NCBI RefSeq assembly: GCF_003018235.1
Contig: NZ_CP027437.1
Strand: one strand, 5' to 3'
Length of the DNA stretch: 64,000 nt
From: Escherichia coli
GTDB taxonomy: Bacteria; Pseudomonadota; Gammaproteobacteria; Enterobacterales; Enterobacteriaceae
Shown: in pieces, positions 15,001 to 42,000 of the stretch
Numbering within the stretch: position 1 is the stretch's first letter
How the letters are laid out: each line of letters starts with the position of its first letter
Program-made: the position numbers

Positions 15001-18000
15001 GCTCAAGCCGGTGAACGTGCCAGGGTGGCTCAATCGCCACCACCCTGGCAACCCGGGCTCCCGGCGGTAAATCGCCGCTGGCGCGGTTCCCTCATCTTAT
15101 TCCTTTCGGCTATTGGGTAAAATGGCCGATACCATCACACCTCGTACTCCATCTCGCCATCTTTACGCAGTGGAATAATCTGCACTTTCTGCACGCGATG
15201 GCTTTCCACCTGCAACGTTTTAAGCAAATAATCCCCCACCTGAACTTCTTCGCCAGGTTTTGGAATACGCTGTAAATATTCCATCAACAGCCCGGCAATG
15301 GTGTGATATTCACGTTTTTCATCCAGCGGCAGCGGCACATATTGCACCAGATCCTCCAGCGGCATATGACCATTCGCCGTCCAGGAACCGTCCGCATTCT
15401 TCTGAATATCATGGCGGGCGTCGATCTCTTCCACTTCGTTCGGTAAGTTACCGGCAATGGTTTCAGTGACGTCACTTAATGTCACAATCCCTTCCACCGA
15501 GCCAAACTCATCCACCACAAAAGCAAAGTGCGTGCGGGCATTACGGAACTGCTCCAGGGCAGGTAACAACGGCAAGGTTTCCGGGAACACCAGCGGCTGG
15601 CGAATCAACACCCGCAGGTTGAGCGGTTCGCCGCGCAGAGACTGTTGTAGCAGGTCGATAACGTGAACAACACCGAGCAAATCTTCTGCGTCATCACCGT
15701 CGGTAACCACCAGCCGCGTATGCTGATTTCGCTCCAGTAACTGGCGGATCTCGTCTTCCGGCGCGTTGAGATCGATATGCTCAATATCGTGGCGCGACGT
15801 CATAATGCTGCTGACGGTACGCTGGTTAAGATTAAGTACCCGCTCAATCATCCGCCGTTCCTGCGGATTAAAGATCTGCTGGTTACCATGATCCACCAGC
15901 ATGGACGCGGTTTCGGCGTCCAGTTCCGCATCTTCTTTTTGCCCGCTAAGCAGGCGCATTACCGCTTCGGTAGTCCGCTGGCGCAGCGTCTGGTTAGCGG
16001 AAAGAAAACGTCGCCGGTTAAAGATAGCCAACTGATTGAGCGCCTCGATCATCACCGAGAAACCAATGGCAGCGTACAGGTAGCCTTTCGGAATGACGAA
16101 GCCGAAACCTTCTGCCACCAGGCTAAAGCCAATCATCAACAGGAAGCTTAAGCAGAGAATAACGATCGTCGGGTGACTGTTAACAAATTGCGTTAACGGC
16201 TTGCTGGCCATCAACATCAGGCTGATAGCGATAACCACGGCGGCCATCATGACCAGTAAATGGTCGACCATCCCGACGGCGGTAATCACTGAGTCGAGTG
16301 AGAAGATGGCGTCCAGTACCACAATTTGTGTCACCACCCCCCAGAACTTCGCACCTTTGCGTTGTGTGGGATTATTGCTGTCTTTCCCTTCCAGCCGTTC
16401 GTTCAGCTCCATCGTGGCTTTGAACAACAGGAAGAAACCACCAAACAGCATGATTAAGTCGCGGGCGCTAAAGGTAAACGAGCGGAAGCTGAACAGCGGT
16501 TGAGTCAGGGTGACCAGCCAGGAGATTGACGCCAGCAGTAACAGGCGCATTAACATCGCCAGCAGCAGCCCGGTAACCCGTGCGCGGTCGCGCTGCTTCG
16601 GCGGTAGTTTTTCGGCGAGGATGGCAATAAAGACCAGGTTATCAATGCCGAGGACCAGTTCGATCACAATCAGCGTGATTAACCCGGCCCAGATAGACGG
16701 ATCGGCAATCCATTCCATAGTAAGTACAAAACCTATTCGTTGTATGACAAATGTCACAATTCGATCATGGATAAATCGGGGCAAAAATGCAATGTTGCAG
16801 CACTATTTATCTCATATTATTTGAGGGTAATAACCTCACATTATCCCTGAATTAAAAGTGGTAATAATAAAACATTATTTAAGAAATATCGCATGTGGAG
16901 ACACTATATTAAATATTGTCAACCTAAAGAAACTCCTAAAAACCATATTGAATGACACTTAATATAATTCTTAAAAATAGCCAATTGCCGAATTGTTACC
17001 TTGCCTGCTATTCCGTTAGCTGTAACACTTCCTCCTGCATTATTGGAGAGCCAATATTCAATTACCATAATGTCACCTTATATTCGGAAGTTAATTTCCG
17101 CAATAACCCTTTCTCATCAACGACTGGATGTTGAGAGAGTTTTAAAAATTAAGCTAAATCAGTGTATTGGTAGCTAAAAAGCCAGGGGCGGTAGCGTGTC
17201 TGGATGCCTGAAAGACCAGTCTGAATTATTCTGTCAATAGCCTGCGGATGAAATCAATTTTTTTAGGACTGATGCCAGTTAAATTTTTATTCAATTAACT
17301 GCAAGGTAAATGTGCATGGCGACATTGCTATTAATAGTGCACAGGATAATTACTCTGCCAAAGTGATAAATAAACAATGATGAAATCCAAAATGAAATTG
17401 ATGCCATTATTGGTGTCAGTAACCTTGATAAGCGGTTGCACAGTACTTCCGGGCAGCAATATGTCGACGATGGGCAAAGACGTCATCAAACAGCAGGACG
17501 CTGATTTCGATCTCGACAAAATGGTGAATGTTTATCCGCTGACCCCGCGCCTGATTGACCAATTACGCCCACGCCCGAATGTAGCGCGCCCCAATATGAC
17601 GCTGGAAAGCGAGATCGCGAATTACCAGTATCGCGTCGGGCCGGGGGACGTTCTTAATGTCACCGTCTGGGATCACCCGGAACTCACCACGCCAGCCGGT
17701 CAGTACCGCAGCTCCAGCGATACCGGCAACTGGGTACAGCCTGACGGCACTATGTTTTACCCGTATATCGGCAAGGTTCACGTAGTGGGGAAAACGCTCG
17801 CTGAAATCCGCAGTGATATTACCGGGCGCTTAGCGACGTACATCGCTGACCCGCAGGTGGACGTTAATATCGCCGCCTTCCGCTCACAAAAGGCCTATAT
17901 CTCCGGTCAGGTGAATAAATCCGGTCAACAGGCGATCACCAACGTGCCACTGACTATTCTCGACGCCATCAACGCCGCAGGTGGCCTGACCGACACCGCT

Positions 18001-39000: not shown

Positions 39001-42000
39001 GCACCTTCCTGACGGCAAGCTCGGCGCTTGCCTTCCTCCATACGCCTTTCGCTCGCGCACTTCCCGCCCGACAAAGCGTTAACATTAACGACTACAACCC
39101 TCACGACTGGATCGCCTCATTTAAACAAGCCTTCCGCGAAGGGCAAACAGTCGTCGTGCCTGGCGGATTGGTTTGTGACAATATCAACACCGGCATCTTC
39201 ATTCCTGCAGGTAAAACGTTACACATCCTTGGAAACTTGCGCGGCAACGGCAGAGGAAGATTTGTCTTACAGGACGGCAGCCAGGTGACAGGGGAGGATG
39301 GCGGCAGTATGCATAACATCACCCTGGATGTGCGTGGTTCTGATTGCACCATCAAAGGGCTGGCGATGAGCGGCTTTGGCCCAGTAACGCAGATTTATAT
39401 TGGCGGCAAAAACAAACGAGTCATGCGTAACCTGACCATCGATAACCTGACCGTTAGCCACGCTAATTACGCCATCTTACGCCAGGGATTTCATAACCAG
39501 ATTATCGGTGCCAACATCACCAATTGTAAGTTCAGCGACTTACAGGGTGACGCCATTGAATGGAACGTGGCAATTAACGACCGTGATATTTTGATCTCCA
39601 ACCACATCATCGATCGCATCAACTGTACTAACGGCAAAATCAACTGGGGCATCGGCATAGGCCTTGCGGGAAGCACTTACGATAATAATTACCCAGAAGA
39701 TCAGGCAGTGAAAAACTTTGTCGTGGCGAATATCACGGGATCAGATTGTCGGCAACTGATCCATGTTGAAAATGGTAAACATTTTGTTATCCGTAATATC
39801 AAAGCTCGTAATATCACGCCGGATTTCAGTAAGAAAGCAGGTATTGATAACGCCACAGTTGCTATTTATGGTTGTGACAACTTTGTGATTGATAATATTG
39901 AAATGAATAATAGTGCCGGGATGTTAATCGGCTATGGGGTAATTAAAGGCAAATATCTCTCGATACCGCAAAATTTCCGAGTGAATAATATTCAACTGCA
40001 TAACACCCATCTTGCTTATAAATTGCGCGGCATCCAAATCTCCGCCGGGAATGCTGTCTCCTTTGTGGCACTGACTAACATTGAGATGAAGCGTGCGTCG
40101 CTGGAGTTACACAACAAACCGCAACATCTTTTTATGCGTAATATCAATGTGATGCAGGAATCCTCAGTTGGATCAGCATTGAGCATGAACTTCGACATGC
40201 GCAAAGACGTTCGCGGCGTCTTTATGGCGAAAAAAGAAACACTGCTGTCACTTGCAAATGTTCATGCGGTGAATGAAAGAGGGCAAAGCTCCGTCGATAT
40301 CGACAGGATTAATCACCATATTGTTAATGTGGAAAAGATTAACTTTAGATTGCCGCAACGGAGAGAGTAGATTTGCGACCATTCCTGGAAAAATGGAGCC
40401 ATACTTAGGAACAATGCTACTGCAATCCACAACGAAGCGGCGTAACATCACAAGTAATTCAGTAATCAATTCAGGTAATTGATGCTGGCGAAAAAAATCG
40501 AACAAGCTATAATTCAGCAACCATTTTACAGGTGGATGAAATAATGACGAATTTAAAAGCAGTTATTCCTGTAGCGGGTCTTGGGATGCATATGTTGCCT
40601 GCCACTAAGGCGATTCCCAAAGAGATGCTACCGATCGTCGACAAACCAATGATTCAGTACATTGTTGACGAGATTGTGGCTGCAGGGATCAAAGAAATCC
40701 TCCTGGTAACTCACGCGTCCAAGAATGCGGTCGAAAACCACTTCGACACCTCTTATGAATTAGAATCTCTCCTTGAGCAGCGCGTGAAGCGTCAACTGCT
40801 TGCGGAAGTGCAGTCCATCTGTCCACCGGGCGTGACCATTATGAACGTGCGTCAGGGCGAACCTTTAGGTTTGGGCCACTCCATTTTATGTGCACGACCT
40901 GCTATTGGTGACAACCCGTTTGTCGTGGTGCTGCCGGACGTTATTATCGATGACGCCAGTGCCGATCCGCTGCGTTACAACCTGGCTGCAATGATTGCGC
41001 GCTTTAACGAAACGGGCCGCAGCCAGGTCCTGGCAAAACGTATGCCGGGCGATCTCTCTGAATACTCCGTCATCCAGACTAAAGAACCGCTGGATCGTGA
41101 AGGCAAAGTCAGCCGCATTGTTGAATTTATCGAAAAACCGGATCAGCCGCAGACCCTGGACTCAGACATCATGGCCGTTGGTCGCTATGTCCTTTCTGCC
41201 GATATTTGGCCGGAGCTGGAACGTACTCAACCCGGTGCATGGGGACGTATACAACTGACTGATGCCATTGCAGAACTGGCGAAAAAACAGTCCGTTGATG
41301 CAATGCTGATGACCGGCGACAGCTATGACTGCGGTAAAAAAATGGGCTATATGCAGGCGTTTGTGAAGTATGGGCTACGTAACCTGAAGGAAGGGGCGAA
41401 GTTCCGCAAAGGTATTGAGAAGTTGCTCGGGAAATAATCAAGACAACAGTTTATTTGAATTGGCAATACTTCATATTAAATGGCAGGAGAAGTCTCGTGG
41501 TGCTATCGGTAGGCAGCATGACTCTACTGCCTTTTTTGTGATAAAAATCAAGCAGTAAAAAACCAATATTCTACCTTTTCTTGTAGCAAAAATCGATTTT
41601 TCCTTGTTTCTTGGTGAGATTAATACGACAATATCTGGAATGTTCTGGGGCTAAATGTGTCAAAATGTAATCGATAATTGGTAGATTGAGCCCCGCAAAA
41701 ATTGGAGTGTATAGTATGCTGGTAGCTGTTGAGCCAGGGGCGGTAGCGTGCCTGAATAAATTAACATTTCGGTGTTAAAATAAGGTAACGTTATGTTAAA
41801 GGCTAACTTACAACAAATATAAGACCAAATAATTGAATACGTAATTAGCATAAAAGATTAATACAATTTCGGAGACGTCATGACTATACTTGTAACAGGC
41901 GGCGCTGGTTATATTGGTTCACATACCGTTCTACAATTAATTGAGGGCGGGTATGATGTTGTTGTGCTTGATAACCTGAGTAATTCATCCCAAGAGTCAC

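Follow-up and report, generated by a model that had tools for sequence, protein, structure and literature searches.

The 64,000-nucleotide stretch of Escherichia coli DNA analysed here, which we call the window, carries in order yegH, the colanic-acid operon from wza to wcaM, galF, and an O-antigen locus of the O89/O101/O162 family. An earlier note had pointed to an identical short sequence ahead of wza and ahead of gne, and predicted that both operons need RfaH for expression of their distal genes. This raises the question of whether the two sites are genuine loading signals for RfaH, and of how far along each gene run their influence might extend. We are confident that both are standard JUMPstart/ops leaders of the E. 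coli colanic-acid and O-antigen operons, each predicted to be read from an upstream promoter and to load RfaH. This reading follows from the exact ops 12-mers on the coding strand, from the complete JUMPstart elements that contain them, and from their placement in non-coding spacers before long runs of genes on the same strand. The loading of RfaH through JUMPstart/ops at these operons is already known biology.

A window-wide motif search places the exact 18-mer GCCAGGGGCGGTAGCGTG at 17181-17198 in the wza leader and at 41733-41750 in the gne leader, on the plus strand in both cases and just where the earlier note had put it, against a chance expectation of 0.01 copies estimated from shuffles; there is no further copy in the window with up to two mismatches tolerated. 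The looser motif GGCGGTAGNNT, for which a scan of the window had been proposed, gives three matches where 0.29 are expected, and two of these are the same sites. The remaining match, at 16600, has the sequence GGCGGTAGTTTT and lacks TG at positions 11-12; it lies within yegH, a minus-strand gene, but on the strand opposite to it, and so does not lie on the non-template strand. The 8-mer GGCGGTAG occurs in addition at 5782 (minus strand) and at 30020 (plus strand, in wcaI), where it reads GGCGGTAGGCGG. We do not regard any of these three occurrences (5782, 16600 and 30020) as ops, since T11 and G12 are missing from all of them and each lies within a gene or on the wrong strand. Intragenic ops-like sites in strain CFT073 show no RfaH binding (PMC9765446).

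Each 18-mer forms the 3' half of a 39-nt JUMPstart. Full-length elements are recognised by Rfam model RF01707 at 17160-17198 (57.3 bits) and 41712-41750 (53.6 bits), where the gathering score is 35 bits, and both copies span model positions 1-38. By our own count the two 39-mers agree at 31 of 39 positions, including all of the 3'-terminal 18, and both close with the canonical 12-nt ops, GGCGGTAGCGTG, at 17187-17198 (190 nt upstream of the wza ATG) and at 41739-41750 (141 nt upstream of the gne/galE ATG). Both sites match the 12-nt GGCGGTAGnnTG, with the bases for recruitment (G4, G5, T6, A7, G8) and for pausing (T11, G12) in place; in the structural work on RfaH, which used the same 12-mer, recruitment needs G4, G5, A7, G8 and T6, and the pause needs T11/G12 (PMC5995543). 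The two ops sites are on the non-template strand, that is, on the plus strand like wza to wcaM and gne to ugd. The JUMPstarts end 179 nt ahead of wza and 130 nt ahead of gne/galE, with all downstream genes on the plus strand, and no annotated coding sequence covers either ops site in the matching records; a small hypothetical reading frame called by PGAP in the yegH-wza spacer (equivalent to window positions 16919-17068) is on the opposite strand and upstream of ops.

The 5-bp JUMPstart stem (UGGU...GCCA) that lies 5' of ops can form in both copies, as UUGGU/GCCAG with a 9-nt loop directly before ops in the first and as CUGGU/GCCAG in the second, all five pairs being standard or wobble in the cmscan alignments. 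It is not the preferred structure in free-energy folds of the local RNA, whose stability around the two elements is no better than that of shuffled sequences (z = -1.0 and -0.5). The stem is thus compatible with the sequence, without independent support from folding. A hairpin common to both local folds, CCAGG..ops..CCUGG, was discarded, as other leaders do not conserve it.

Over the full spacer between yegH and wza, the wza leader shows about 98% identity to its K-12 counterpart; of 5426 complete E. coli genomes, 4818 have this leader. The only plus-strand promoter-like match between 16700 and 17400 is TGGAGA-16-CATAAT (17044-17071), whose K-12 counterpart differs by one base in the first hexamer. 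We consider it a candidate sigma-70 promoter for the colanic-acid operon; transcription would start at about 17078, which would place ops near +110. The operon itself (17377-40370, plus strand), running wza-wzb-wzc-wcaA through wcaM in our reading-frame list and in the annotation of NCTC10973 and K-12, is 95-99% identical to K-12. It is normally silent, so that RfaH becomes relevant there only after induction of the promoter. An RcsAB box was sought upstream of wza with the consensus TAAGAATATTCCTA, and there was no match with three or fewer mismatches. By eye, a 10-of-14 match is present on the minus strand at about 16960-16973, to which we give no weight.

Beyond the colanic-acid operon, galF (40532-41437, plus strand; reading frames and annotation of matching records) separates the two polysaccharide operons. 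Its 3' end is followed at 41482-41537 by a long hairpin (-27.3 kcal/mol, z = -3.76 in the RNA fold) and then UUUUUU, and a GGCAG...CTGCC hairpin with a T-run occupies the same place in most of the aligned leaders from our serogroup comparison, which comprised 12 fetched sequences downstream of galF from different O serogroups. This terminator-like hairpin, upstream of the promoter, would set galF apart from the O-antigen transcription unit. All 12 leaders contain, amid otherwise divergent sequence and always upstream of ops, the block TTGTTT-17-NANAAT, and the ops 12-mer is invariant in all of them. (BLAST with the 321-bp O-antigen leader is unfit for counting JUMPstarts across serogroups, the conserved part being too short.) In the window the block reads TTGTTT (41604-41609)-17-GACAAT (41627-41632), a candidate O-antigen promoter from which transcription is predicted to start at about 41639, relative to which JUMPstart would be near +73 and ops near +100.

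Transcription start sites bear directly on the claim, since a start downstream of the element would remove it from the leader. The sequence, which speaks to this only indirectly, does not indicate such a start. About 100 nt before the O-antigen ops stands the conserved promoter block, a promoter-like site lies about 110 nt before the wza ops, and the CFT073 O-antigen transcript by RNA-seq starts 67 nt before ops and 24 nt after the homologous -10 hexamer (PMC9765446). Both promoter positions here are thus assigned from sequence, conservation and the CFT073 data. The two promoters were reportedly mapped by Stout in 1996 and by Marolda and Valvano in 1998.

The O-antigen genes (41880-52222, plus strand; annotation of the identical NCTC10973 stretch, and Pfam) encode gne/galE, a glycosyltransferase, wzm, wzt, two further glycosyltransferases, a methyltransferase and a bifunctional glycosyltransferase. 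They are rare among genomes, and the leader is part of the same imported segment. Their G+C content of 34-40% is typical of H-NS targets. The Shine-Dalgarno sequence of gne is good (GGAG), so ribosome recruitment by RfaH may matter little at this gene.

Published evidence for use of such sites comes from CFT073, where the RfaH ChIP-seq signal begins at the identical ops of the wza and O-antigen leaders (PMC9765446, Data set S2). At wza the signal appears in a delta-hns delta-stpA strain and reaches wcaL; at the O-antigen locus the wild-type peak covers 15.4 kb, from the leader through gndA, ugd and wzzB, and without rfaH the occupancy of RNA polymerase 5.4 kb downstream falls to 0.1-0.34 of wild type (PMC9765446). 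The gene for RfaH lies outside the window; at species level, all but one of 5426 complete E. coli genomes (5425) carry it. With ops and JUMPstart in untranslated spacers here, and RfaH bound at the homologous sites in CFT073, the predicted need of both operons for RfaH in this strain is supported by homology. An ops shows the point at which RfaH loads and does not define the end of an operon.

The sequence of events would be as follows. RNA polymerase would start at a promoter upstream of each element, transcribe into ops and pause at U11 of GGCGGTAGCGTG, where the exposed non-template DNA strand would fold into a small hairpin that RfaH recognises. RfaH would then remain on the polymerase, excluding NusG and so Rho, suppressing pausing, helping to recruit ribosomes and counteracting H-NS, and in this way the 10-23 kb operons could be transcribed as far as their distal genes. 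At the colanic-acid operon these effects should matter only once the Rcs-dependent, H-NS-silenced promoter fires, while constitutive action would be expected at the AT-rich O-antigen locus, probably continuing through gnd into ugd and a distal module of seven genes. This mechanism has been established for the family; for this strain we infer it. Sites resembling intrinsic terminators inside the two operons are at chance level (30 against 24 ± 5, and 15 against 14 ± 4), so the sequence itself does not show what RfaH must overcome.

We considered how else the two sites might be explained. A promoter scan of the O-antigen leader also returns TTGAGC-18-TATAGT (41686-41715, 9 of 12 positions), which overlaps the 5' end of the second JUMPstart; its use would start transcription inside the element, at about 41722, and ops would then fall at about +17 to +28, so early that sigma-70 might remain bound and be in competition with RfaH, leaving ops unused as a leader signal. 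We think this very improbable. The region holds three such matches where 3.1 are expected by chance, and TATAGT is absent from the closest relative, the O89m strain AR435 (TGTACAGT), and from every other serogroup leader compared, in contrast to the TTGTTT-17-GACAAT block upstream, which is kept in 12 of 12. The match was therefore rejected as not conserved. Even from such a start ops would still be transcribed, and at CFT073 rfaQ RfaH loads with ops only 27 nt from the transcript start (PMC9765446).

A role in recombination is an old suggestion for JUMPstart, and the 18-mer might accordingly be mainly a junction for swaps of O-antigen clusters and not a regulatory site. The element does stand at the border between conserved galF and variable O-antigen genes, and no other long block is invariant among the divergent leaders. 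In this lineage, however, divergence from typical E. coli begins well upstream, identity to K-12 falling from 97-99% to 93-95% across wcaM and galF; the galF 3' end is found at 99% identity or more in only five genomes, and the entire leader is of the O89-family type, all of which argues that the junction is not at JUMPstart. Such a role would also leave unexplained why a copy precedes wza, whose locus belongs to the conserved core, and direct loading of RfaH has been shown at the homologous CFT073 sites (PMC9765446). We give this explanation as little credence as the internal start. Less probable still, to the point of being negligible, is that both matches arose by chance or are relics without function: only the brevity of the motif speaks for it, whereas two copies are seen where 0.01 are expected, both complete elements exceed the Rfam cut-off at canonical positions, and the ops 12-mer does not vary among 12 leaders that otherwise diverge.

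Further along the O-antigen locus, the segment 52312-61714 (plus strand; reading frames, annotation and Pfam) comprises gnd, the seven-gene module (53859-60225) and ugd, and the window motif search found no further ops in any of these. Since the module lacks an ops, its genes are probably expressed by read-through from the ops in the leader, and the segment marks the possible distal reach of the RfaH-modified polymerase. We suggest, as a proposition we rate a little below an even chance, that both parts of the O89-family locus are served by one ops, that at 41739, the polymerase with RfaH reading about 20 kb through gnd and its promoter region into the module and ugd. If so, the distal genes, which probably modify side chains, would depend on a signal 12-18 kb upstream, and a locus cut off at gnd, like that of O89m strains, would have lost precisely the tail that depends on RfaH. 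Of modest use is the observation that the distal gnd-ugd module lacks an ops. The main result matters little beyond correct annotation, namely that the colanic-acid and O89/O101/O162-family O-antigen operons carry standard RfaH loading signals; from this it follows that an rfaH mutant should be rough or O-antigen-poor and should fail to make full colanic acid under Rcs induction.

The colanic-acid leader differs little from its known counterparts. JUMPstart/ops in the K-12 cps (wza) leader was described by Stout (1996), as cited in PMC9976346; the 39-bp element and the gene order from wza to wcaM are the same in the window, the leader showing only a few point differences. Compared with K-12, the operon in the window carries an insertion of 74 nt between wcaD and wcaE, and its wzc-wcaA spacer, which contains REP, is longer. 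In CFT073, too, this ops 12-mer precedes wza by 190 nt.

The O-antigen leader differs in sequence type from those of K-12 (O16) and CFT073 (O6), whose ops sites have been validated as RfaH targets (PMC9765446; Belogurov 2009, cited there). All three share an identical ops 12-mer, the CTGGTAGCTGT...GCCAGGGG stem region and the upstream TTGTTT-17-GACAAT block at the same place after galF, but in the window promoter and JUMPstart are 18 nt further apart, so that the distance from the -10 hexamer to ops is 106 nt as against 91, and its ops-to-ATG distance is 141 nt as against 87 and 71. Its first gene is gne/galE, export is by an ABC transporter (wzm/wzt) and not by Wzx/Wzy, and the locus extends past gnd by seven more genes. 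It shares the wzm/wzt gene family of the O89/O101/O162 loci and, with O89m strains, a leader type that is 89.5% identical; for O89-type loci a JUMPstart between galF and galE had already been noted and a role for RfaH proposed (PMC6128206). In contrast to O89m, where the locus is cut off at gnd and moved between nfsB and ybdK (PMC6128206), the window keeps the conventional arrangement, with colanic acid present and the locus at galF-gnd-ugd with its distal genes. Finally, hly, kps and other RfaH operons share the GGCGGTAG core and the leader position, although ops can be as far as 634 nt from the first gene in those operons; the ops of hly (GGCGGTAGCATG) and kps (GGCGGTAGCATA) vary at positions 10-12, whereas both window sites are the exact consensus.

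The 18-mer GCCAGGGGCGGTAGCGTG matches exactly at 17181-17198 and at 41733-41750, on the + strand in both cases, with no third match in the window when up to two mismatches are allowed; dinucleotide-preserving shuffles give a chance expectation of 0.01, and the identical core that the earlier note placed at these two positions is borne out. The Rfam JUMPstart covariance model, RF01707, is covered in full at 17160-17198 (57.3 bits) and 41712-41750 (53.6 bits; gathering score 35), which makes the 18-mer the 3' half of a complete 39-nt JUMPstart at each site. Each comprises a stem of 5 bp (UUGGU/GCCAG or CUGGU/GCCAG) with a 9-nt loop, followed on its 3' side by the 12-nt ops GGCGGTAGCGTG. 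By manual count, 31 of 39 positions are the same in the two elements, and the similarity stops at their flanks. The 12-mer is the 'ops12' of a structural study of RfaH recruitment, in which recruitment depends on G4, G5, A7, G8 and T6 and pausing on T11/G12 (PMC5995543).

The scan with GGCGGTAGNNT proposed in the earlier note returns three matches against 0.29 expected. The third, GGCGGTAGTTTT at 16600, lies within yegH in antisense orientation, and we reject it as an ops. The bare 8-mer has further copies at 5782 (-) and 30020 (+), the latter inside wcaI (GGCGGTAGGCGG); both lack the T11G12 pause dinucleotide and are likewise rejected. Dismissal of the sites at 16600 and 30020 is supported by E. 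coli CFT073, in which intragenic ops-like sequences bind no RfaH (PMC9765446).

The window is E. coli DNA: the yegH-wza region is matched in 4832 of 5426 complete genomes, and 1461 bases at the O-antigen end are 100% identical to NCTC10973 and four other genomes. In the gene order, taken from the NCTC10973 and K-12 annotation and the ORF list, yegH (- strand) precedes the colanic-acid genes wza-wzb-wzc-wcaA through wcaM (17377-40370) and galF (40532-41437). An O89/O101/O162-family O-antigen cluster follows, running from gne/galE at 41880 through a glycosyltransferase, wzm, wzt, two glycosyltransferases, a methyltransferase and a glycosyltransferase ending at 52222, with gnd, seven same-strand genes (53859-60225) and ugd downstream. 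Ops 1 (17187-17198) and ops 2 (41739-41750) lie 190 nt upstream of the wza ATG and 141 nt upstream of the gne ATG, on the coding (non-template) strand in spacers free of annotated genes.

Several other elements lie in the colanic-acid operon. An algC RNA motif (Rfam; 31744-31793, 77.3 bits, cut-off 33.8) occupies the cpsB-cpsG spacer immediately 5' of the phosphomannomutase gene cpsG. REP/BIME-type palindromic repeats occur in untranslated spacers at 21134-21293 (wzc-wcaA, longer than in K-12) and 36183-36350 (wzxC-wcaK, with two Rfam naRNA4 matches on the - strand). Between the wcaD stop and wcaE start (25048-25127), a spacer of 10 nt in K-12 and NCTC10973, there is an insertion of ~74 nt, the sequence of which (gagttgcaggaag...gcacatgcagcttgaagtatgacgggg) resembles a short ERIC/IRU repeat. 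As a query this stretch is mostly covered in about 750 genomes, and the best match it in two pieces that together span 45 nt more than the query itself, with extra sequence somewhere within, so the site is polymorphic. Towards the window's ends are two Sib antitoxin RNA genes (SIB_RNA; 930-1072 and 1259-1407, -; 140.8 and 149.5 bits) and a match to the Hfq-binding sRNA STnc490 (63257-63382, +).

We infer from sequence that transcription starts upstream of both ops elements. The yegH-wza spacer as a whole is about 98% identical to K-12, its JUMPstart is identical, and the wza leader is found in 4818 of 5426 genomes. The sole + strand promoter-like match in 16700-17400 is TGGAGA-16-CATAAT (17044-17071), which if used would place ops at about +110. 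PGAP calls a hypothetical 49-aa ORF on the opposite strand of this spacer in many genomes, corresponding by homology to 16919-17068 (-) and overlapping the presumed wza promoter region; it is probably a spurious call.

On the O-antigen side, a long hairpin with UUUUUU directly after it lies 3' of galF (41482-41537; -27.3 kcal/mol, z = -3.76). We compared galF-downstream spacers from 12 strains with differing first genes, including rfbB, wzx (O6, O170), the O157 GT2, a GT4 and galE of the related type O89m. They are highly divergent apart from two blocks kept in all 12: CTTGTTTC, 17 nt and GA(C/T)AAT, represented in the window by TTGTTT (41604-41609) and GACAAT (41627-41632), and a JUMPstart with invariant GGCGGTAGCGTG, 66-107 nt 3' of the -10 hexamer. 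RNA-seq places the beginning of the CFT073 O-antigen transcription unit 67 nt 5' of ops (PMC9765446 Data set S2A), 24 nt past the homologous -10 hexamer, a spacing to be read with the roughness of RNA-seq transcript boundaries in mind. The conserved TTGTTT-17-GACAAT block is the candidate O-antigen promoter, and the CFT073 start is compatible with it. A promoter scan also returned TTGAGC-18-TATAGT (41686-41715), which runs into the 5' end of JUMPstart 2; its -10 hexamer is unconserved even in the closest O89m relative, the regional match count is at chance level, and we reject it as a chance match. The strongest sigma-70-like match of the O-antigen region, TTGATA-18-TATAAT (52043-52072; 11/12), lies within the final glycosyltransferase gene of the cluster, some 240 nt 5' of gnd, and may be gnd's own promoter.

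By the mechanism established for this family, RNA polymerase would pause at ops, where RfaH would read a hairpin of the non-template strand, remain bound and keep NusG off, lowering pausing and Rho-dependent termination and aiding ribosome recruitment (PMC5995543; PMC9765446). In wild-type CFT073 the ChIP-seq signal of RfaH begins at the identical ops of the O-antigen leader and forms a 15.4-kb peak over wzx through cpsG, gndA, ugd and wzzB; in a delta-hns delta-stpA strain it extends from the wza ops as far as wcaL (PMC9765446). Loss of rfaH lowers polymerase occupancy at 5.4 kb downstream to 0.1-0.34 of the wild-type level in the O-antigen, kps and rfa operons (PMC9765446). Homology to these experimentally validated sites supports the earlier prediction that distal genes of both operons need RfaH, and nearly every complete E. 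coli genome has rfaH itself (5425 of 5426). The low G+C of the O-antigen genes (34-40%, versus 52-57% for colanic acid) fits the H-NS-bound, RfaH-counter-silenced class of PMC9765446. Counts of intrinsic-terminator-like sites within both operons are at chance level, so no particular barriers are visible in the sequence.

The O-antigen genes had also been called newly acquired. Acquisition, whenever it took place, agrees with a compositionally foreign and uncommon cluster, its leader and galE being matched across 80% or more of the query in only 308 of 5426 genomes. K-12 identity is 97-99% over most of the colanic-acid operon and drops to 93-95% in wcaM and galF (39500-41437), and only five of 5426 genomes share the galF 3' end at >=99%, which together indicate that galF, the promoter and JUMPstart 2 all belong to the imported segment. 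The O-antigen leader arrived together with its genes, rather than the genes having been inserted behind a resident ops. The 39500-41437 interval is the hitch-hiking or recombination tract flanking the O-antigen locus and containing the promoter and JUMPstart 2.

The seven genes between gnd and ugd encode a DAO-type FAD oxidoreductase, a hypothetical protein, an NAD(P) oxidoreductase (PGAP name), a xylose-isomerase-like TIM-barrel protein, a small EamA/SMR-like membrane protein, a GT2 glycosyltransferase and a 456-aa hypothetical protein. The set carries no separate ops. It forms the distal part of a conventional O89-type locus and resembles a side-branch module for sugar modification and lipid-carrier functions. 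Because the CFT073 peak runs through gnd and ugd, one leader ops could plausibly serve the module and ugd as well, at a distance of 12-20 kb.

The JUMPstart/ops findings in the window are all already described: such elements have been reported 5' of cps (Stout 1996, as cited in PMC9976346) and, in K-12 and CFT073, 5' of rfb (PMC9765446), and for O89-type loci an earlier study noted a JUMPstart between galF and galE and proposed that RfaH takes part (PMC6128206). Compared with K-12 and CFT073, the window departs in details only: in its O-antigen leader the promoter and JUMPstart are 18 nt further apart and ops is farther from the ATG, the operon begins with a different first gene, the O antigen is ABC-transporter dependent, and a distal module lies past gnd.
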